Notes under the pieces: model-generated | Seen by the model: the letters and a program-made list of their open reading frames with translations, nothing else | What the model was told of the DNA's origin: nothing | Database searches by the model: none | Position numbers and translations under genes: made by a program | From: Candidatus Cloacimonadales bacterium | GTDB lineage: Bacteria > Cloacimonadota > Cloacimonadia > Cloacimonadales > JAIOQZ01 | Assembly (NCBI GenBank): GCA_963665815.1 | Contig: OY762463.1 | Coordinates: forward strand, 768,001-832,000 | DNA: 64,000 bases | Reading direction: 5' to 3' | Shown: positions 25,037 to 34,732 of the stretch, in pieces | Position numbering within the stretch: position 1 is the stretch's first letter | Layout of the letters: the number at the start of each line of letters is the position of its first letter

Positions 25037-25054
25037 TTGGAAGAGGATTTGCAA
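25037..25054 (+). promoter_or_regulatory. Sigma54 -24/-12 promoter
   Basis: TTGGAAGAGGATTTGCAA (GG-N10-GC) directly downstream of a sigma54 activator gene and 53 bp before the ATG at 25107. Confidence 0.7.
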
Positions 25055-25106: not shown

Positions 25107-26987
25107 ATGAAAAAGTTTATATTTGTACTAATACTAACAGCTTTGACCTTGTCATGTTTTTCGGCAAGCATATCTGGAAGAGTACTAACAGATAATGATG
25201 TTAATGGTATCCCCGGGATACGAGTTGCTTATATCGGTGACTCCCTGTTTACTATTCCCATGTTAGATAGTATATATAGTAATGGTATAAATATTGAAAA
25301 CTATATATTGGCTTATGATATTACAGACCAGAATGGGTATTATTCAATCCAGATAACTCCCGGAACTGAGGGAATTGTTGTTGCTCAGGACATTTTGAAT
25401 TTTCATTTTATGGAACAGTTCATAGGAATTGGTGAGGATTCAGTAAATGATTTTGAGAATGCCGGAATATTTGTTTTTGATGAAATGGATATCAACTTCA
25501 CTCAATTTGATTTTATGCTTCATACAATAAATCTTATTGGAAACAACACAATCTCCGGAACTATAACACCTCCGACAAACACAGCAGGGCTCAATATTGA
25601 ATTTGATGTAAGACTTGAGTATCTTCATTCACATGTATTACCACCTTACACATGTACTGTCAGTACCAATAGTCCTTCTTTTGCTTTTAATAATATAAGA
25701 GATGGTGTATATAGATTGAAAGTTTTCTCAAGGTTCAACCCAAACGGGAACTTCTATCATCGTAATGATACATTGATGTTTGCCAGATTAGCTGTCAGAG
25801 GAGGTCAAACAATTGACACAGTTAATGTTGAACTTCCAGACATACAGTATAATACTATTACATTCAGCGTTAATGATGATTCAGAAAATCCGCTATCTGA
25901 TGCTGAAGTAACACTTGTTTCTCTGAATTCAGACCTGAACTACAGCATCATTACAGATACAAACGGTTCAGCAGTTATTGATAATCTTATAAACGGAAGA
26001 TATACAATATCAGTAGAGAAGGATAATTTCCAGAGAACAGATAACTATGGTAACATTATTACTGTAAGCAATGATCAAAACTACACTTTCGAGATGTCCC
26101 CCGTACAGGTTTTTGATAACTCAATTTCCGGAGTAGTTTCAACAAGTCATGACTTTGTTGATCCTCCCACATTCCCGACAATGGCAATTGCCGTATCAAG
26201 TGATGATGAAGAGTCATGGGTAAGAACATCCACAGTTGGCGGTAGTACTGGTCAATTCGTTTTAAGAAATCTACCGTCAGATGATTACTATGTGTATGTT
26301 ATTTCCAGTGATGCTCCTCCAACATTCTTCCCTAATACCGATACATGGGAAACAGCCCAGACAGTTCTGGCCACTGGTGATGTAGAAAATATCGATGTAG
26401 TTATCACACCGGCAACAAACGAAGGATCATTCTCTGTTTCCGGTAATGTGATGGAGCAAAGCGGAAGAGCCCTAATATCTGAAGCATCTGTTATTCTATA
26501 TAATGATGATAATGTACCTGTAGGATTTTCAATAACAGGTGAAAATGGCAGATATTTTATAAATAATCTCAGATCAGGTAATTACACAAGAAAAGTTACA
26601 AAACTGAACTATAACAGTCAAAGTCAGCCATTCCAGTTACTGGGTAACAGTTCATGCGACTTGTTTATTCAGGAAACTCAAACAGCTAATGATAATGTAA
26701 ACATAGCGAGCGAAGCTATTGAACTGAGGTGCTACCCAAATCCGTTTAATCCGGAGACAACTATTGAGTATTCAATAAACAGAGATTCTAACGTCGAAAT
26801 TATAGTGTTTAATATCAAGGGACAGAAAGTGTACACTTTCCAACCTGAATTTAAAGAAAAAGGGATTCATAAAGTCAAATGGAGCGGAGTGTCAGACAGT
26901 AATCAACCTGTGGCTTCCGGAGTTTACTTCTATCAGCTTAAGACTGAGACAGAATCCAGAATCAGAAAAATGTTACTACTGAAATAA
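25107..26987 (+). CDS. Secreted protein with carboxypeptidase-regulatory-like/CnaB-type beta-sandwich repeats and CTD
   Basis: Signal peptide; ISG.V...TDxNGxY/F repeats; YPNPFNP...KMLLLK. Confidence 0.82.
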   Translation: MKKFIFVLILTALTLSCFSASISGRVLTDNDVNGIPGIRVAYIGDSLFTIPMLDSIYSNGINIENYILAYDITDQNGYYSIQITPGTEGIVVAQDILNFHFMEQFIGIGEDSVNDFENAGIFVFDEMDINFTQFDFMLHTINLIGNNTISGTITPPTNTAGLNIEFDVRLEYLHSHVLPPYTCTVSTNSPSFAFNNIRDGVYRLKVFSRFNPNGNFYHRNDTLMFARLAVRGGQTIDTVNVELPDIQYNTITFSVNDDSENPLSDAEVTLVSLNSDLNYSIITDTNGSAVIDNLINGRYTISVEKDNFQRTDNYGNIITVSNDQNYTFEMSPVQVFDNSISGVVSTSHDFVDPPTFPTMAIAVSSDDEESWVRTSTVGGSTGQFVLRNLPSDDYYVYVISSDAPPTFFPNTDTWETAQTVLATGDVENIDVVITPATNEGSFSVSGNVMEQSGRALISEASVILYNDDNVPVGFSITGENGRYFINNLRSGNYTRKVTKLNYNSQSQPFQLLGNSSCDLFIQETQTANDNVNIASEAIELRCYPNPFNPETTIEYSINRDSNVEIIVFNIKGQKVYTFQPEFKEKGIHKVKWSGVSDSNQPVASGVYFYQLKTETESRIRKMLLLK

Positions 26988-27039
26988 GGGAATGAAAATG
27001 ACCTTAAAATTGATCAATACAAAGAGCAAAGGAGAAACT

Positions 27040-29892
27040 ATGAGAACGAAACAAATTAAGTTCTTACTGGCTGCAGTTGTTTTCATGATGTTGAGCGGCA
27101 TCATGAATGCTGTGACATTCAGCGGCCATGTTACATCTGCCGAAGATGGTTCTGATGTAGCCAATGCAAATGTTATCTGCTTCATAATGCCAGATGACTC
27201 AACAGGTACCGGTAACAGACCGGAATCCACAACCACAGATGTGAGCGGAAACTTTACATTTTATAATATCAACGATGGTTCTAATGTAATGCTTGAAGTT
27301 TCACACGGTGACTTTTTGCTATTCAACCAGAACTATACCGTGAATGGTAATATGTCTGTAGATATAGCGCTTAGTACCATGAATAACGTGACAACATACT
27401 CTGTTAGTGGCGTTGTAATAGACAGTCTGAATAACCAGCCTGTTCCAAACCTGAATATTATTCTGGGGGGAAGCCTTCTGGAAATAGCTTATAATGCTGT
27501 AACAGACGCAAATGGAGCATTCAGTTTTGCAGAAGTGATTTCACAGGAATATGACATTTATCTTGGTAATCCAAACTTCATACCTCCTGCATACCATATC
27601 ACTGTGGATCAGGATTTGAATCTTACATTATATCACACTCCTGCTAATACTAACAACCATGTTGTAGGAACAATAGTTGATGAAAATGGAAATCCTGTTC
27701 CTCATCTTCCTGTAGCAATTGCAGGTAACCTCATGGATGTCATGTATCTTGAACAGACAAACAATAATGGAGTGGTACACTTTAATGATGTTGTGACACA
27801 ACCTTATAATGTATATCTCGGACCACGCAATCCAATGCAGGTTCCTGATGCGGTCATCAATGTTGATGGTGATAATCAATTTACAGCCGTATTTGGAAAC
27901 AATAATCCTGATACTATGTATACGGTTACAATAAATATTGTAGATGAAAACAATGCTCCTGTTCAGTTCACACAGTTCGTTATAGCCGGTCAATTAATGG
28001 ATATTGGTTACAACGGCATTACAGACAATATGGGAACAGCAGTTATAACAGGCGTTATCCCACAACCGTATAATCTTTACATTGGTAACCACGGTCCCAT
28101 GGTTAATCCGGATGCAAGCTTCATAGTAGACAGCGACACATTAATAACTGTTGTATATACAGACACTGTAATGACAGATACATATACTTTATCCGGAGAC
28201 GTAATTGACTTTGATACAAATCAACCTTTACAGGGGATTGAAATTGTTATTTCTTATCGTAACCCATGGAATCAGGATTCTGTTGTTTTAACAGATGCTG
28301 CTGGTCATTTCAATGTGGACTCTCTTTCTGCCGGACGTTATTTCGTGTCTATTACAGATCCTGCCTATAATGTCTATATGAACGAAGTTATTCTTGATCA
28401 GGATATCAATCTCAGCATACCTCTTCACACTTTTGCAGGTGGAGACATAACTTTCTCAGGTAGCGTATTCAATGCAAGAACAGGTATGCCTGTTGATGGA
28501 ATCAATGTTACACTTACAGAAATTGACAGTAATAATACAACAGAAAATTATTCTGTTGTTACAGATTATCAGGGACAATTTGTAATTGATAATATGACCG
28601 CAGGTAATTATGAAGTAACACTTATGCTTAATGGTATGATGCTTTCATATCAAATAGTACACATTAATCATTCAAGACATATGAACTTCCCTGTCAGAGT
28701 TATTCAAATTGATGCTCCTGTTCTCAGCGGAAGAGTAATGGACTTCAATAGAAACCCTGTAGTTAATGCAGCAGTTGAAATTTACTGTGAATTCCTTGAT
28801 TGTGCTCCGGAAACAGTATATACAGATAATAGAGGTTTCTATAATACTGATCAGGTAATTAATGATGAACCTTACATTGTAACAGTTCAAGAAACCGGCT
28901 ACTTACCTTTCGAAGGAAGAGTTTTTGTCAATGGTGATACCAGATTTGACGTAAGACTGATTGGCGATGACATGGTTATCAATTCTTCAGTTTCAGGAAC
29001 AGTAATATCAGACGATACAAGTAATCCTGTTAGTAATGCTGTTGTTCATTTAATCCCTGAAAATGGCGGATTCCACAATCCATTCTTAACCGCTATGACA
29101 GATGTAAACGGACAATATACTATCAACGTTCCTGCAGGGAACTATATGGCTGTATGTCATGTAAGAAATGTAGAATTCTGGAATACAGATTCATTATACA
29201 TTAATTACTACAGAGAGTTTTATGATGATACGCAAGAAATCGAAACCGCACAGCTCATTACTGTAGGTGATGATCAGGATGTTAGTGGTATCGATTTTGG
29301 TGTACCCGATTATAACTCAACCTTTGATCCTGTTTTCCCTGAAATCTTTGGGCTTCTTGACACAGACGACAGAACAAATCTTCAAATCGCTCAGATTACT
29401 CTGAAAGACACTGATAATAACATATTAGCTCAGACAACTTCTGGTGATGACGGAAGATTTTCATTTGAAGGAGCAAGAGAAGGTAATTCATACACAGTTA
29501 TTGTTGAACTTGATGGTTATGAAACTCAAACAATAGAGTTAACTCATTATGGCATGGATTCATTCTTGAGCTTTGATATGGAAGCAGTTATTGCTAATGA
29601 TCCAGTTAATGAGTTTGAAGAGTTATCACTTGGAAACTATCCAAATCCATTTAATCCGGAAACTACAATAAATTATTCACTTACTAATGATGAAAGAGTC
29701 GAAATATCAATATATAACCTTAAGGGACAAAAAGTAAAAACACTCATTAATGGTCATCAAACCGCAGGAAAGCATGAAGTAATGTGGAATGGTACAAACA
29801 ACAGTAACAATCCTGTTGCTTCAGGTGTTTACTTTACGATCCTTAAAACATCAAAAGAAACTTTGAAACACAAAGTTTTGTTATTGAAATAG
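27040..29892 (+). CDS. Secreted protein with multiple carboxypeptidase-regulatory-like repeats and CTD
   Basis: Start MRTKQ after AAAGGAG; about 9 (S)GxVxD...TDxxGxF domains; CTD. Confidence 0.85.
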   Translation: MRTKQIKFLLAAVVFMMLSGIMNAVTFSGHVTSAEDGSDVANANVICFIMPDDSTGTGNRPESTTTDVSGNFTFYNINDGSNVMLEVSHGDFLLFNQNYTVNGNMSVDIALSTMNNVTTYSVSGVVIDSLNNQPVPNLNIILGGSLLEIAYNAVTDANGAFSFAEVISQEYDIYLGNPNFIPPAYHITVDQDLNLTLYHTPANTNNHVVGTIVDENGNPVPHLPVAIAGNLMDVMYLEQTNNNGVVHFNDVVTQPYNVYLGPRNPMQVPDAVINVDGDNQFTAVFGNNNPDTMYTVTINIVDENNAPVQFTQFVIAGQLMDIGYNGITDNMGTAVITGVIPQPYNLYIGNHGPMVNPDASFIVDSDTLITVVYTDTVMTDTYTLSGDVIDFDTNQPLQGIEIVISYRNPWNQDSVVLTDAAGHFNVDSLSAGRYFVSITDPAYNVYMNEVILDQDINLSIPLHTFAGGDITFSGSVFNARTGMPVDGINVTLTEIDSNNTTENYSVVTDYQGQFVIDNMTAGNYEVTLMLNGMMLSYQIVHINHSRHMNFPVRVIQIDAPVLSGRVMDFNRNPVVNAAVEIYCEFLDCAPETVYTDNRGFYNTDQVINDEPYIVTVQETGYLPFEGRVFVNGDTRFDVRLIGDDMVINSSVSGTVISDDTSNPVSNAVVHLIPENGGFHNPFLTAMTDVNGQYTINVPAGNYMAVCHVRNVEFWNTDSLYINYYREFYDDTQEIETAQLITVGDDQDVSGIDFGVPDYNSTFDPVFPEIFGLLDTDDRTNLQIAQITLKDTDNNILAQTTSGDDGRFSFEGAREGNSYTVIVELDGYETQTIELTHYGMDSFLSFDMEAVIANDPVNEFEELSLGNYPNPFNPETTINYSLTNDERVEISIYNLKGQKVKTLINGHQTAGKHEVMWNGTNNSNNPVASGVYFTILKTSKETLKHKVLLLK

Positions 29893-29898
29893 GAATTT

Positions 29899-30310
29899 AT
29901 ATGCTTCAGCTTAATTATACCCCTAATGAAAATAATGTAGATTACCCCCCTGTAATTTACAATACCCCTACAGCTGAACGCATGTTTAACAGAGCAGGAG
30001 CCCCTAACTCCTGCTCTTTCCCCTCAGCGTTTAAAAGTAACTTGAAATATAAAGCATTGATTACGAAATACCCCTATACCCCTAAATCTGCATTTTACTA
30101 CCCGGTATCATGCAAAGATAAGTTTTCAATGCTGAATGAGAACGGATTTTCCCCTAAATCCGACTCTTATTTCGAAGTTAGTTTCATACATAATCTACAC
30201 CGGAGTCTAATTACCCCTAATGAAAATAATGTAGATTACCCCCCTGTAATTTACAGTACCCTAAACTCCGAGTGTAAGATTATCGGAGCGGGATCCCCCT
30301 ATCCCGCTCC
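29899..30310 (+). ncRNA. Candidate modular structured RNA with multiple CCCCU-loop hairpins (unknown family)
   Basis: Nested stems visible by eye, 11 CCCCT motifs, a 44-bp identical core (29918-29961 = 30212-30255) enclosed by unrelated but pairing stems; G.U pairs favour the + strand. Confidence 0.65.
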
Positions 30311-30415
30311 ACATTTTATCAATTGATATTACATTAAACCTCTTCCCCTCTTCTTTGACATATTTAATTCATTGACATTTTATCCAGCAAACTGAACCTC
30401 TTAACTGAGGTAAAA

Positions 30416-31924
30416 ATGTTTGAAAAAGTTCATGAAGCTATAAAATTACTGATTGATTTGTCGAAGAGCGAAACAGATCATATCAGTTTTCTTGAAAATG
30501 CCGTACATTCTCTATCTGAATCCTTTAAATTAAGCAAGTCGTTGACTGTTTTTGGAATTGACGGTCAGATTTTCGAGTGCGAATACTCCCAAAAAAGAAA
30601 TCAGTTCACTAATTATGTTCTTAAAGAAGAGTCACTCAATGATAGACTCAGCAGCATAATTGCTGATAAATCAGAAGAATATGGTCACAGTCTTACTATT
30701 CATGATAATAAAGACTCACTGACCGGAATTATAAATTTTTCATTAACTGATAACACTGAAAATGCCTTTGAAATTCTTACTGAGGCAAAAGATATTTTTC
30801 ATCTGATTTTTACTTACCATTACCGTCAGTTTCAACTCGGGGAGAGAGTTAAAGAACTTTCATGTCTGCATCAGATAAACAAAATTGCCAAACAGGTTGA
30901 TTTAAGTACAGATGAATTACTGAGTAAAATTGTGAAACTTCTACCTCCCGCATGGCAATTCCCTACATACACATATTCACGAATCACTTTCAATAAAAAC
31001 GTTTTCATCTCCGAGCCTTTTGTTGAAACTAATTTATTGTTGAAATCTGAAATTATTATTGATAAAGAAAATTCAGGGCATGTTGAAGTATTTCTTGCTG
31101 AGAGCTTCAGAAAACCCTTGAATGAACCTTTCCTGAAGGAAGAGGAAATTCTGATATCTACAATAGCTCAGGAACTGAAAAATATACTCAAAAGAAGAAT
31201 CATTGAAGAAGAGAGGAAGCAACTTGAACAACAATTACTTCATGCAGACAGGCTCGCGACACTTGGTCAGCTTTCAGCAGGAATTGCGCATGAGATAAAT
31301 GAACCTCTTGCCGGAATTCTTGGTCTTGCTCAGTTAATGGAAAAAAATCCCAGTCTTAATAACGAAGCGATGTCTGATCTTGAAAACATAATCTCTGCAT
31401 CACTTCATGCTCGTGAAGTAGTGAAAAAGCTCATGTTGTTTGCCAGACAGATGCCAAGTTCTCACAGTAAACTTAACCTTAATGATGCTGTAAAAAATGC
31501 CCAGTTCTTTCTTGAGTCGCGATGTAATAAAGAAGGCATCAGGATTGAACTGAACCTTGCAGAGAATATTCCGATGATATCTGCTGATTCATCACAAATA
31601 CACCAGGTACTTATAAATCTGATTGTCAATGCTATGCAGGCAATGAATGACGGTGGTAAAATCACAATATCAACATACTTTGATGAGTTTAACATATATC
31701 TTAAATGTGAAGATACCGGTTCCGGGATTCCTGAAGAAATTATTGATAAAATATTCAATCCTTTTTTTACAACTAAAAAGGTCAACGAGGGAACAGGGCT
31801 TGGATTGTCAGTTGTGCACGGAATCATATACTCACATAACGGAGAGATTACTGTAAGCAGTAAGGAGAATATTGGCACGGAATTCATTGTATCTTTACCG
31901 GGGATAGAAAGTTATGAAAAATAA
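30416..31924 (+). CDS. Sensor histidine kinase (NtrB-like) with GAF-like input domain
   Basis: LATLGQLSAGIAHEINEPL H-box, QVLINLIVNA N-box, DTGSGI, FNPFFTTK, GTGLGL. Confidence 0.93.
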   Translation: MFEKVHEAIKLLIDLSKSETDHISFLENAVHSLSESFKLSKSLTVFGIDGQIFECEYSQKRNQFTNYVLKEESLNDRLSSIIADKSEEYGHSLTIHDNKDSLTGIINFSLTDNTENAFEILTEAKDIFHLIFTYHYRQFQLGERVKELSCLHQINKIAKQVDLSTDELLSKIVKLLPPAWQFPTYTYSRITFNKNVFISEPFVETNLLLKSEIIIDKENSGHVEVFLAESFRKPLNEPFLKEEEILISTIAQELKNILKRRIIEEERKQLEQQLLHADRLATLGQLSAGIAHEINEPLAGILGLAQLMEKNPSLNNEAMSDLENIISASLHAREVVKKLMLFARQMPSSHSKLNLNDAVKNAQFFLESRCNKEGIRIELNLAENIPMISADSSQIHQVLINLIVNAMQAMNDGGKITISTYFDEFNIYLKCEDTGSGIPEEIIDKIFNPFFTTKKVNEGTGLGLSVVHGIIYSHNGEITVSSKENIGTEFIVSLPGIESYEK

Positions 31925-33242
31925 AGTAATTGTTATTCTGGATGATAATGCTGTAACACGAGATATTATAAAAAGAAATCTGAAGAAACATGGTTATGCT
32001 ACTTTTACTGCAATGAATTTCAATATTGCAAAAGAAATCTTGCAAAAAGAAAAACCTGATCTGATTATTACAGATCTTATGATGCCGGATGTCAGTGGAC
32101 TGGATGTTATTCGTTATGTTAAAGAAAATCATACAAACACAGAAATCATAGTTCTTACCGGTTACCCAACAATTAACACTGCTGTTGATGCAGTAAAACT
32201 CGGTGCAGATGATTATCTGACAAAACCTTTTACAGATGTCGAACTTCATCTTGCCGTGAAAAAGACACTTGAAAAAGCAGAAGCCAGAAAATCCTTGAGT
32301 ATCGCAACAAAAAATGATTTCGAAACAAAATTTGGAATAATCGGTAAGTCAAAACTTATGCTCGAAGTATTTAAAACTATTGAAAAAGCTTCAGACATTA
32401 AAAGTACTGTTCTTATTACCGGTGAAAGCGGTACAGGAAAAGAGTTGATTGCCAGGGCTATTCATTATGGAGGCAAGAGATCAGCTGAGCATTTTGTTCC
32501 GATTAATTGTGGAGCAATTCCTGAAACGCTGCTTGAAAGCGAACTGTTTGGTTACAGAAAGGGTGCATTTACTAATGCAAATGTGGATAGAGACGGTTTT
32601 TTCCAAAGTGCTGACAGAGGAACAATCTTTCTGGATGAGATATCAGAAACCAGTTCTCTGATGCAGATCAAACTTCTTCGTGTTATTCAGGAGAAAGAAG
32701 TTTATAGAATTGGATCTAACTCAGCAGAGAAAGTCGATGTAAGAATCCTTGTTGCCTCTAACAAAGATCTATATGAACTCGTTGAACATAATAGATTCAG
32801 GCAGGATTTGTTCTATAGACTCAATGTACTTACAATCAGCGTACCTCCTCTCAGAGATCGAGGTAATGATATTCTTCTACTGACCAATTACTTCAGCAGT
32901 AAATTCTCCAATGAATTTGGGAAACCGGCTCCAGAATTCAGCGATGACGTTCTGGAAGTCTTCAAAAAATACATCTGGCCCGGAAATGTTAGAGAATTGG
33001 AAAACCTTATTCACAGATTGATAATTATGAATGAGGGAGAATGCATCTCTTTATCAGATCTGCCTGAGTTGATGAAAACAAGACAGGAAACCAGATACGA
33101 CATAAACAAACCATTGAAGGAAGTTGAAAAAGAACACATTATGAATGTTCTTGAATATGTTGATAACAATAAATCCAAAGCTGCAGATATTCTCAAAATC
33201 GACAGAAAGACACTGCACAACAAACTTAAGCAATATGAGTAA
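31914..33242 (+). CDS. Sigma54-dependent response regulator (NtrC/AtoC family)
   Basis: Receiver (LDD, TDLMMP, TKP), GESGTGKE, GAFTNA, FLDEI, WPGNVREL, Fis HTH. Confidence 0.93.
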   Translation: MKNKVIVILDDNAVTRDIIKRNLKKHGYATFTAMNFNIAKEILQKEKPDLIITDLMMPDVSGLDVIRYVKENHTNTEIIVLTGYPTINTAVDAVKLGADDYLTKPFTDVELHLAVKKTLEKAEARKSLSIATKNDFETKFGIIGKSKLMLEVFKTIEKASDIKSTVLITGESGTGKELIARAIHYGGKRSAEHFVPINCGAIPETLLESELFGYRKGAFTNANVDRDGFFQSADRGTIFLDEISETSSLMQIKLLRVIQEKEVYRIGSNSAEKVDVRILVASNKDLYELVEHNRFRQDLFYRLNVLTISVPPLRDRGNDILLLTNYFSSKFSNEFGKPAPEFSDDVLEVFKKYIWPGNVRELENLIHRLIIMNEGECISLSDLPELMKTRQETRYDINKPLKEVEKEHIMNVLEYVDNNKSKAADILKIDRKTLHNKLKQYE

Positions 33243-33401: not shown

Positions 33402-33417
33402 TGGCAAACAGATTGCT
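33402..33417 (+). promoter_or_regulatory. Sigma54 -24/-12 promoter of the gdh operon
   Basis: TGGCAAACAGATTGCT, close to the TGGCAC-N5-TTGC consensus. Confidence 0.8.
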
Positions 33418-33442: not shown

Positions 33443-34732
33443 ATGAATATGAGTTATTCGTTTAACGCTTATGCAATGGCTCAGGAACAGTTTGATTCAA
33501 TAGCAGATAAACTTAGTCTGGATCGTGCTGCCCGAGATTTACTTCGAAATCCAATGAGAGAATTTCATTTCAACATTCCGATTAAAATGGACGATGGGAC
33601 TTCACGAGTATTCAGAGGATTCAGAATTCAGCATAATGATGCTCTTGGACCAGCCAAAGGCGGAATAAGATTTCATCCTCAGGAAACCGCAGACACAGTG
33701 AGAGCTTTAGCAATGTGGATGACATGGAAAACATCTGTTGTAGATATTCCGCTTGGAGGCGGAAAAGGTGGAGTTGTGTGTGATCCGCATAATTTATCTT
33801 TCAGAGAACAGGAACAGATCTGCAGAGGTTATGTTAGACAACTTGGGCAAAATATTGGACCGTTGCGAGATGTTCCGGCTACAGATATCATGACAAACGG
33901 ACAGCATATGGTCTGGATGCTTGATGAATACGAAACGATGACCGGCAAAAAATATCCAGGAATGATTACAGGGAAACCTGTTGGCATGGGTGGGTCACTT
34001 GGAAGAACCGAAGCAACCGGATATGGTGTAATCTTTAATATTCGTGAAGCCCTGAAGCAGATGAATATCCGACCTGCTGAAACGACTGCATCTTTTCAGG
34101 GTTTTGGAAACGTAGCTCAACATGCAATCAAGCTGTATAATCAGATGGGTGGAACAGTTCTCTGTGTATCTTCATGGGATCAGGATGACCAGAAGTCTTA
34201 CGCATTTTACAAGAAAGATGGTATTATTCTTACAGAACTCCAGAAAATAACAGACCATTTTGGCGGAATTGATAAAAGCAGAGCTAAAGATGCAGGCTAC
34301 ACAGTTATGCCAGGAGATAAATGGGTTGAAATAGAGTGCGATATACTTATTCCTTCTGCTCTGGAAAACCAGATTACCGAAGTAAATGCCAAACTGATTA
34401 ACAACAAAGTAAAAATTATTGCAGAAGGTGCTAACGGACCAACAAACCCAAAAGCAGATAAAATTCTTCACGAAAGAGGAATTTTCCTCATTCCTGATTT
34501 TCTTTGTAATGCCGGAGGCGTAACATGCAGTTATTTTGAGCAGGTGCAGTGCAATATGAACTATTTCTGGAGTAAGGATGAAGTTCTGGGAAAACTGGAT
34601 TATAAACTTACTTCTGCATATCATAAAGTATCTACTCTGGCGAGAAACAAGAATCTTTATATGAGGGATGCAGCATATATGATCTCTATTGATCGTGTTG
34701 TAAGAACCGCAAGAGCAAGAGGATGGATTTAA
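33443..34732 (+). CDS. gdhA: Glu/Leu/Phe/Val dehydrogenase (glutamate dehydrogenase)
   Basis: GPAKGGIRFHP, MTWKT, PLGGGKGG, ITGKP...GGSLGRTEATGYG, GFGNVA, EGANGPT, PDFLCNAGGVTCSYFE. Confidence 0.92.
   Translation: MNMSYSFNAYAMAQEQFDSIADKLSLDRAARDLLRNPMREFHFNIPIKMDDGTSRVFRGFRIQHNDALGPAKGGIRFHPQETADTVRALAMWMTWKTSVVDIPLGGGKGGVVCDPHNLSFREQEQICRGYVRQLGQNIGPLRDVPATDIMTNGQHMVWMLDEYETMTGKKYPGMITGKPVGMGGSLGRTEATGYGVIFNIREALKQMNIRPAETTASFQGFGNVAQHAIKLYNQMGGTVLCVSSWDQDDQKSYAFYKKDGIILTELQKITDHFGGIDKSRAKDAGYTVMPGDKWVEIECDILIPSALENQITEVNAKLINNKVKIIAEGANGPTNPKADKILHERGIFLIPDFLCNAGGVTCSYFEQVQCNMNYFWSKDEVLGKLDYKLTSAYHKVSTLARNKNLYMRDAAYMISIDRVVRTARARGWI

Follow-up and report, generated by a model that had tools for sequence, protein, structure and literature searches.

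CrcZ and CrcY of Pseudomonas are RNAs of ~400 nucleotides (nt) that carry several unpaired A-rich motifs, lie beside cbrAB and have Hfq/Crc as their partner, and the 6C RNA of Actinobacteria and the cuckoo (CcsR) RNAs of Alphaproteobacteria present C-rich hairpin loops that are thought to meet G-rich sites. Some regulatory RNAs also contain a reading frame, as RNAIII/hld and SgrS/SgrT do, and in Salmonella mgtL and mgtP the translation of proline codons selects the fold; in all of these the frame has a few tens of codons at most and occupies part of the RNA only. RsaE/RoxS of Firmicutes (Rfam family RF01820) is ~100 nt long. According to a published study, RoxS has four C-rich regions (CRR1–4) with several unpaired C-rich motifs and a duplicated CCCCUUUGUU, pairs through them with G-rich Shine-Dalgarno (SD) regions, and has its expression set by the two-component system ResDE (PMC4409812). 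Here we describe an element of ~420 nt and three modules on the + strand (29897–30320) of a 64,000-nt window of a Candidatus Cloacimonadales genome (positions 768,001 to 832,000 of contig OY762463.1, GenBank assembly GCA_963665815.1; coordinates below are those of the window unless stated otherwise). The element, delimited by its fold, its conservation and a substitution simulation, is a lineage-specific structured RNA and a new family that resembles known multi-motif regulators.

With RsaE/RoxS the element shares unpaired C-rich motifs, here CCCCU, which complements AGGGG in SD position, but it differs in its ~420 nt, its 11 motifs in three stem-enclosed modules, its phylum and its co-extensive open reading frame (ORF). 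CrcZ/CrcY are alike in size, in the repeated unpaired motif and in adjoining genes for a histidine kinase and a sigma-54 activator, whereas here the motif is CCCCU, no Hfq was found in the genome, the RNA lies upstream of the kinase gene and no sigma-54 element stands directly before it; kinase and activator genes are adjacent, and a conserved -24/-12 element lies 4.8 kb upstream, before the operon. CsrB/RsmY/RsmZ have the same multi-hairpin layout with many loop motifs, and CsrA is present in this genome, but the GGA loop motif that defines those RNAs is absent here, CCCCU standing in its place, and there is no Rfam match. The 6C and cuckoo RNAs, which likewise gave no Rfam hit here, are short, have two or so hairpins and come from high-G+C phyla. 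In contrast to the frames of dual-function RNAs and proline-codon leaders, the one found here has 141 codons (29901–30326, + strand) and spans the whole fold including the terminator.

No Rfam 15 family matched at gathering score anywhere in the window, which bears out a first-pass annotation of this DNA that had called the RNA possibly undescribed. In a permissive search of 29000–31000 the best match, to a plant microRNA model, reached 20.6 bits against a threshold of 50, and RsaE (RF01820), 6C, CsrB/RsmZ, CrcZ and cuckoo were absent from the 10 permissive matches, with E values of up to 10. The Rfam result and the motif together exclude membership in the RsaE/RoxS, CrcZ and CsrB/RsmZ families. 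By analogy, RsaE/RoxS would be the closest functional analogue, and CrcZ and CsrB/RsmZ would be closest in architecture and context. For small RNA in Cloacimonadota, a full-text literature search turned up one unrelated paper and no account of a regulatory RNA from this phylum.

The first-pass annotation had proposed a modular structured RNA, to be judged by folding both strands against shuffled sequence, and this comparison came out in its favor. The minimum free energy (MFE) of the + strand was -122.4 kcal/mol, compared with -64.4 ± 4.9 in 100 dinucleotide shuffles, none of which folded as well (z -11.8), and the - strand had a z of -5.9. Every stem that had been listed for the three modules is present in the + strand MFE structure. 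Module 1 (29899–29985) has a 13-base-pair closing stem with one bulged C (29899–29911/29972–29985), which surrounds single-stranded UACCCCUAAUGAAAAUAAU, an inner hairpin with a CCCCCU loop (29936–29961) and single-stranded ACCCCU. A 10-base-pair hairpin with a CCCCUAA loop follows (29991–30017), formed by the inverted repeat AGAGCAGGAG/CUCCUGCUCU, which is 100% complementary, and single-stranded UUUCCCCU lies directly 3′ of it.

Module 2 (30038–30180) comprises an outer stem running inwards from 30038/30168, a AGCAUUGA/UCAAUGCU stem and two hairpins, of which the inner one occupies 30086–30119 and the other, CGGAUUU-UCCCCU-AAAUCCG, occupies 30143–30162. Single-stranded AUACCCCUAUACCCCUAAAU (30068–30087) separates the AGCAUUGA arm from the inner hairpin and falls at the beginning of a 64-nt stretch (30061–30124) that is invariant between two species. 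In module 3 (30190–30283) a bulged closing stem of 17 base pairs (30190–30206/30265–30283) surrounds the core of module 1. The earlier claim that modules 1 and 3 share this core holds: a 28-nt probe matched twice where no match was expected, the two modules form an 87-nt repeat that is 82% identical, with a duplication offset of 294 nt, and a covariance model built on module 1 scored 162.5 bits on that module and 89.5 bits on module 3.

The last hairpin, GGAGCGGGAU-CCCCCU-AUCCCGCUCC (30285–30310; region to 30320), was picked up by a terminator scan and is followed by ACAUUUUAUC. It has 10 pairs, 7 of them G-C, and thus shows the G+C-rich stem-loop and U-rich run of an intrinsic terminator. The region contains four terminator-like sites, compared with 0.6 ± 0.7 in shuffles. 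This hairpin is invariant between species, and each of the three differences that set it apart from the hairpin of module 1 is compensatory. The element would end in this intrinsic terminator, with both RNA ends placed from sequence.

We compared the element in its own genome (G000) with its copies in the genome of a congeneric sister species (G001) and in a third homolog that is known as protein only (P0003). Between the two genomes the element is 93–96% identical in 100-nt bins, compared with 49–92% for flanking coding DNA, and the kinase protein is 80% identical. Of 23 substitutions in the element, 10 are at unpaired and 13 at paired positions; those at paired positions comprise three compensatory pairs (30048/30169, from U-A to C-G; 30143/30162, from C-G to A-U; and 30197/30275, from A-U to G-C), four one-sided changes, all A-U/G.U exchanges that keep the pairing, and two pair breaks, both at helix ends. 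When the same substitution types were placed at random in 500 simulations, 9.5 ± 1.8 pairs were broken and the MFE was -98.5 ± 6.8; the MFE of the real G001 element is -121.7, and none of the 500 simulations was as good on breaks or MFE. For module 2, the two-species consensus fold has 47 pairs, with two compensatory changes, four one-sided changes that keep the pairing and no breaks.

For P0003 we counted only the 37 nucleotide changes that follow from its amino acids regardless of which codons are used. At five pairs both partners had changed and pairing was retained in every case, whereas the random mean was 0.41 and none of 20000 random sets reached five; six pairs were broken, compared with ~17.4 expected. 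The double changes include two in module 2 (30088/30117 and 30091/30112, each from C-G to U-A), which entail S63F together with D73N and A64V together with C71Y, and two in the closing stem of module 3 (30198/30274 and 30205/30266). When modules 1 and 3 of both species were placed in one model, seven pairs had changed on both sides and 92.4% of cells were paired, compared with 32–50% when the pairing was slid, although the alignment was fitted to the covariance model and so favors its pairing somewhat. The internal covariation that had been proposed for these modules was thus recovered.

The strand assignment of the first-pass annotation also held. Read on the + strand, all of the one-sided changes that were kept are A-U/G.U exchanges, whereas the opposite strand would have A.C at these places; because of these changes, the terminator and the gene orientation, we assign the RNA to the + strand. 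Taken together, the fold and its compensatory changes make it very probable that the element is a selected, functional RNA structure.

The 11 copies of CCCCT that had been counted in 29899–30310 are all there, at 29920, 29947, 29965, 30001, 30020, 30071, 30079, 30151, 30214, 30241 and 30296; a twelfth, at 30345, lies outside the fold. The whole genome has 834 copies on the + strand, and the 450-nt window around the element holds 12 of them, the next-best holding 6, while on the - strand no 450-nt window of the genome has 6. All 11 motifs in the RNA are predicted by the partition function to be unpaired, with probabilities of 0.84–1.00 compared with 0.41 element-wide; five fall within hairpin loops and the other six within single-stranded joints. 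The loops read CCCCCU, CCCCUAA, UCCCCU and CCCCCU. That of the hairpin at 29991–30017 has changed at three positions in the sister species but retains CCCCU, shifted by one base. P0003 retains the amino-acid pairs that encode the motifs with the exception of P16S, which is still compatible with CCCCU. The motifs use rare C-ending codons, CCC being the rarest proline codon of the genome (1051 occurrences, compared with 5170 for CCT).

The second-densest CCCCT cluster of the genome, with six copies, lies inside a 726-codon frame (G000:C1:3433251–3433450) and was rejected as a relative of the element, being a short tandem coding repeat of palindromic CCCCTTTAGGGG-like units. It adjoins a stretch that, by eye, resembles a DUF559-type endonuclease module.

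The element is a single locus in its own genome as judged by BLAST, where the module 1 covariance model, too, matched only the two modules of this locus; these two results rule out a dispersed repeat or mobile element, such as a repetitive extragenic palindrome (REP), a miniature inverted-repeat transposable element (MITE) or an integron attC site. BLASTN of 60 relatives recovered it at full length only in the congeneric G001, at 94% identity, and four further hits were dismissed as pieces of 22–28 nt. The covariance model found it in 2 of 151 genomes of the order, and a six-frame profile of the frame translation found it in 2 of 203. A DNA pattern based on the loops matched six loci among all species-representative genomes, and only the one in G001 is real; the other five are chance hits without a CCCCT cluster. 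A search of 5.8 billion predicted proteins returned the G001 copy and one further relative, P0003, which has 142 amino acids, is 73% identical and comes from an ENA metagenome contig.

Six peptide-derived patterns gave 112 matches in JGI metagenome contigs, none of which was confirmed, and in two sediment metagenome runs the sole variant is that of G001, which adds no new sequence. Genera of the same family (50–56% G+C) have an ortholog of the kinase but no CCCCT cluster in the ~1 kb upstream of it. Among the genomes searched, the element is thus found only in the genus of the window; one metagenome relative is known in addition. One more protein, a 143-residue repeat ORF (P0008) that weakly resembles the translation of the module 2 hairpin (E 6e-4), was dropped as a probable chance match; across 232 genomes of the phylum it gave a single weak hit, which contains four stops, and the JGI contigs gave no hit.

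The genome has 3.96 Mb and 36% G+C. Upstream of the element, on the + strand like the kinase and regulator genes below, are two secreted-protein genes (25107–26987 and 26992–29892), each encoding CarboxypepD_reg repeats and a C-terminal sorting domain for type IX secretion by Pfam and the ORF list; the stop codon of the second is at 29890–29892, and the element begins 5–7 nt downstream. A histidine kinase gene (30416–31924; HisKA, HATPase_c) starts 90 nt 3′ of the element, and is followed by a gene for a response regulator of sigma-54 activator type (31914–33242; Response_reg, Sigma54_activat, HTH_8) and by the glutamate dehydrogenase gene gdh (33443–34732), all by Pfam. Counting mismatches to the sigma-54 consensus, we found -24/-12 elements of sigma-54 type ~55 nt before the first secreted-protein gene (TGGAAGAGGATTTGCA, 25038–25053, + strand; two mismatches) and ~25 nt before gdh (TGGCAAACAGATTGCT, 33402–33417, + strand; one mismatch). 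The TGG-N9-TTGC[A/T] of both is kept in G001 while the flanks diverge, which makes it plausible that both units are driven by the local sigma-54 activator; direct control of gdh by the local two-component system is probable. The sigma-54 control suggested by the first-pass annotation is plausible in this light.

A possible promoter of sigma-70 type (TTGAAA at 29863–29868, a 16-nt spacer and TGAAAT at 29885–29890, + strand), suggested by sequence and alignment, overlaps the end of the upstream gene; its second hexamer reads TAAAAT in the sister species. A promoter scan passed over this site on account of the G at position 2 of its second hexamer. A start near 29897–29899 would follow from it, and the RNA could then be independent of the operon. 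On the far side of the element, 30354–30415 contains two TTGACA hexamers 16 nt apart before the kinase gene, along with a hairpin, CCUC-UUAACU-GAGG, that includes the GAGG ribosome-binding site of that gene; of these, the sister species retains the second hexamer and the hairpin. The kinase gene may thus have its own promoter with a sequestered SD sequence.

We propose that the RNA would form the 3′ end of the transcript of the operon for the two type-IX-secreted proteins, an operon that is probably sigma-54-driven, with a promoter of its own possible in addition. The three stem-enclosed modules would present the 11 copies of CCCCU in hairpin loops and single-stranded joints, and the RNA would act in trans through these motifs, most likely on a subset of mRNAs whose ribosome-binding regions or 5′ leaders contain G-tracts (AGGGG) that the motifs would pair with, much as in the C-rich-region RNAs RsaE/RoxS. 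To this explanation as a whole, a lineage-specific + strand RNA of ~420 nt that acts in trans through CCCCU, we assign a probability of roughly 0.45; the pairing with G-tracts, as its main mode of action, is put forward tentatively and is open to considerable doubt.

The 16S rRNA of the organism ends 3′ in CACCUCCUUUCUA, and the organism uses SD sequences, GGAGG standing before ORF starts in 17.7% of its occurrences. For AGGGG, 4.6% of the occurrences, preceding 74 ORFs, are in SD position, compared with ~1% for control pentamers. The AGGGG(G/A) variant that precedes these 74 frames of at least 80 codons would need a G.U pair with the 16S tail CCUCCU. Among 11-mers of the genome that are complementary to C-tract segments of the RNA, 10 of 47 lie in start regions, compared with 4 of 115 for a reversed control, and the corresponding counts for 10-mers are 29 of 185 and 13 of 351.

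The best candidate targets would be six secreted-protein mRNAs with UAUAGGGGUAU in their leaders. ATACCCCTATA (30068–30078), which lies in the invariant center of module 2, is the exact complement of TATAGGGGTAT, which occurs six times outside the element as an exact match (G000:C1 2886517(+), 2980012(-), 3391859(-), 3787033(-), 3789890(-) and 3793065(-)), in all cases 16–29 nt before the start codon of a gene with a type-IX sorting domain. The six proteins have 867–937 residues and FG-GAP or PKD domains. In each of the leaders a second G-tract then follows in SD position, three of the six have TGG-N9-TTGCA ~35 nt upstream, and TATAGGGGTAT is kept in three orthologous G001 leaders though the flanks differ. 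Other candidate targets include a VWA protein, a cation efflux protein, a hibernation factor, an epimerase, an ABC-2 permease, a receiver protein, PheS, trigger factor and MarR.

Several results weigh against the explanation we prefer. CCCCU is exactly complementary only to the AGGGG variant, and the anti-SD sequence of the organism is CCUCC, not CCCCU. The six-leader lead is post hoc, and the genes are paralogs with four leader contexts, in a genome with at least 150 cargo genes. The type-IX cargo class has no excess of G-tracts in its start regions (10 of 148, compared with 124 of 2696; Fisher p 0.23), its predicted duplexes are no better (Mann-Whitney p 0.43), and the other candidate targets are functionally unrelated to one another. 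The covariation comes from few lineages, since it was drawn from two DNA sequences and one protein-inferred homolog, and among the public sequencing runs that hold the locus there is no RNA run. Nor does the explanation account for the openness of the 141-codon frame, which is strongly non-random. Finally, eleven copies of one motif fit a protein decoy at least as well as they fit pairing with G-tracts.

Such a decoy, which we consider somewhat unlikely, would resemble CsrB/RsmZ or CrcZ: the 11 copies of CCCCU would titrate an RNA-binding protein that reads C-rich single strands, under control of the kinase and sigma-54 activator. An RNA of ~400 nt with many copies of a short motif, all predicted unpaired, has this layout, and the element adjoins a gene pair for a kinase and a sigma-54 activator much as crcZ adjoins cbrAB. 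The retention of CCCCU in the loop of the hairpin at 29991–30017, despite its three changed positions, also agrees with it. Candidate readers are encoded, with three matches to KhpA/KhpB-type KH proteins (two above cut-off) and one RRM protein in the genome, but a CCCCU-binding protein is not known in this phylum, and CsrA, the sole classic sponge partner present, reads GGA. Directly before the RNA, moreover, no sigma-54 element was found, the best site (29805–29820) having three mismatches and lacking GG.

The frame supports another reading, and here the first-pass annotation needs correcting, since the supposed gap after the secreted-protein genes is not free of ORFs. The AUG lies inside the closing stem of module 1, 8 nt after the stop codon of the upstream gene and with AGGA 6 nt before it, and the stop codon comes 13 nt past the stem of the last hairpin. 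The frame was called as a protein in three assemblies. According to this reading, which is unlikely, the element would be a ribosome-gated leader or dual-function RNA whose 141-codon frame is translated, possibly coupled to the upstream gene. Ribosomes would melt the modules and terminator and cover C-rich, G-poor stretches that would otherwise load Rho, and translation would choose between a terminated, stable RNA and read-through into the kinase and regulator genes.

The openness of the frame across the whole element is the chief evidence for translation. A forward frame of at least 141 codons occurred in none of 20000 dinucleotide shuffles (mean longest 50) and in 3 of 20000 on either strand; the other two forward frames of the element have many stops. 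The frame is open in all three known homologs, P0003 having a one-codon insertion, although the protein search that yielded P0003 sees open frames only, and retention in G001 is by itself unremarkable (P ~0.35 under 23 random changes, 4.4% of single changes giving a stop). No shorter fragments of the frame occur in the protein collection. Three copies of CCCCU are phased such that AA directly after the motif would create an in-frame TAA, and all three continue with CA or AU instead. Proline takes 16 of the 141 codons, and the codon score of 0.108 is intermediate between genes (0.30 ± 0.09) and off-frames (~-0.10). The ratio of nonsynonymous (dN) to synonymous (dS) substitution rates, omega, is 0.77, as if only translation itself mattered.

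Against a ribosome-gated RNA, the AUG is buried in a 13-base-pair stem and promoter-like sequence separately precedes the kinase gene. Known leader peptides have far fewer residues and stop short of the terminator, whereas this frame, unlike that of a leader-peptide attenuator, has 141 codons and ends past the terminator stem. A sharper version, in which the amino acids are irrelevant and ribosomes re-initiate 8 nt past the upstream gene, slow at CCC-CCU, unfold the modules and terminator and block Rho, is distinctly unlikely. If it were true, one molecule would switch between a terminated, folded trans-acting RNA that displays 11 copies of CCCCU and a translated message that reads through into the genes for the kinase and sigma-54 activator. 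Its size and layout would be new among the ribosome-gated regulatory RNAs described so far.

That the frame is instead an ordinary gene for a small protein rich in Pro, Tyr and Asn, with an RNA fold that is incidental or stabilizes the message, is very improbable, in spite of its SD-like AGGA, its three annotated copies and the in-frame duplication (294 nt) of module 1 as module 3. Between G000 and G001 the frame (29901–30323) has a dS of 0.069, a dN of 0.053 and the omega of 0.77 given above, much like the other two frames of the element (0.66 and 0.77), and so shows no preference for changes that preserve amino acids. The neighboring genes have omegas of 0.02–0.21, the upstream gene having 0.12 with a dS of 1.03 and the kinase gene 0.02 with a dS of 2.96. 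From this contrast in dS, all codon positions of the element are held ~15 to 40 times tighter than neighboring synonymous sites. The 23 substitutions are spread over codon positions 1, 2 and 3 as 10, 4 and 9, amino-acid identity (88%) is below nucleotide identity (94%), and the compensatory changes in the RNA force radical replacements, namely the S63F/D73N and A64V/C71Y of P0003.

The product has no Pfam family, and a search of 1.84 billion protein representatives found nothing credible outside the clade; five other hits, with E values of 1e-5 to 6e-4, were rejected (four long multi-stretch proteins of 1323–2502 residues and one repeat ORF). AlphaFold2, working from a shallow alignment, gave a mean predicted local distance difference test (pLDDT) score of 33 and no confident fold. 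Of what would mark a coding gene, the frame therefore has the longer-than-chance opening but neither purifying selection on its product nor outside relatives, a family or a fold. The frame shows no constraint on its amino acids; what is conserved among the homologs is the pairing, so that the low omega that would have spoken for a conserved ORF at the expense of the RNA did not appear. The first-pass annotation, which named the 141-codon ORF only as a possible refutation, underrated it, given that no shuffle in 20000 had so long a forward frame and that it is open in all three homologs.

A passive 3′ untranslated tail, whose stem-loops protect the operon message from 3′ exonucleases and terminate it with no action in trans, is likewise very improbable: the element does start within 7 nt of the last stop of the operon and does end in its first terminator-like hairpin, but such a tail needs neither 11 conserved, exposed copies of CCCCU nor a 64-nt invariant region of single strand and hairpin, nor would it keep 420 nt at 93–96% identity while adjoining synonymous sites are saturated.

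Elsewhere in the window, ~43280–64000 on the - strand holds a tandem array of at least nine paralogous type-IX sorting-domain genes (matches at genome positions 811280–832474), in which an exact 16-mer, TTGAACACCATCTGCT, recurs on the + strand every 2.5–2.8 kb (43292, 45859, 48612, 51322, 53842 and 56447). In the whole of G000 the Por_Secre_tail sorting domain is present in at least 150 frames (of 184 candidates, 150 were scored and all 150 passed), a type-IX cargo repertoire that is very large for a 3.96-Mb genome.

The narrow spread of the element, found in a single genus of the genomes searched and in one metagenome relative, limits its general reach. For the organism itself it would offer a single-locus entry point, with covariation that is strong for so few sequences and the most extreme motif clustering in the genome, and through its setting it is connected with sigma-54 control and with type-IX-secreted proteins. 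Because the runs that contain it carry an organism label and not a metagenome label, the strain may be cultured and the element thus testable. A selected RNA fold that coincides with a selected-looking but amino-acid-neutral frame of 141 codons is unusual. If the translation is real, the locus would be a natural case of ribosome traffic and RNA structure sharing one sequence.

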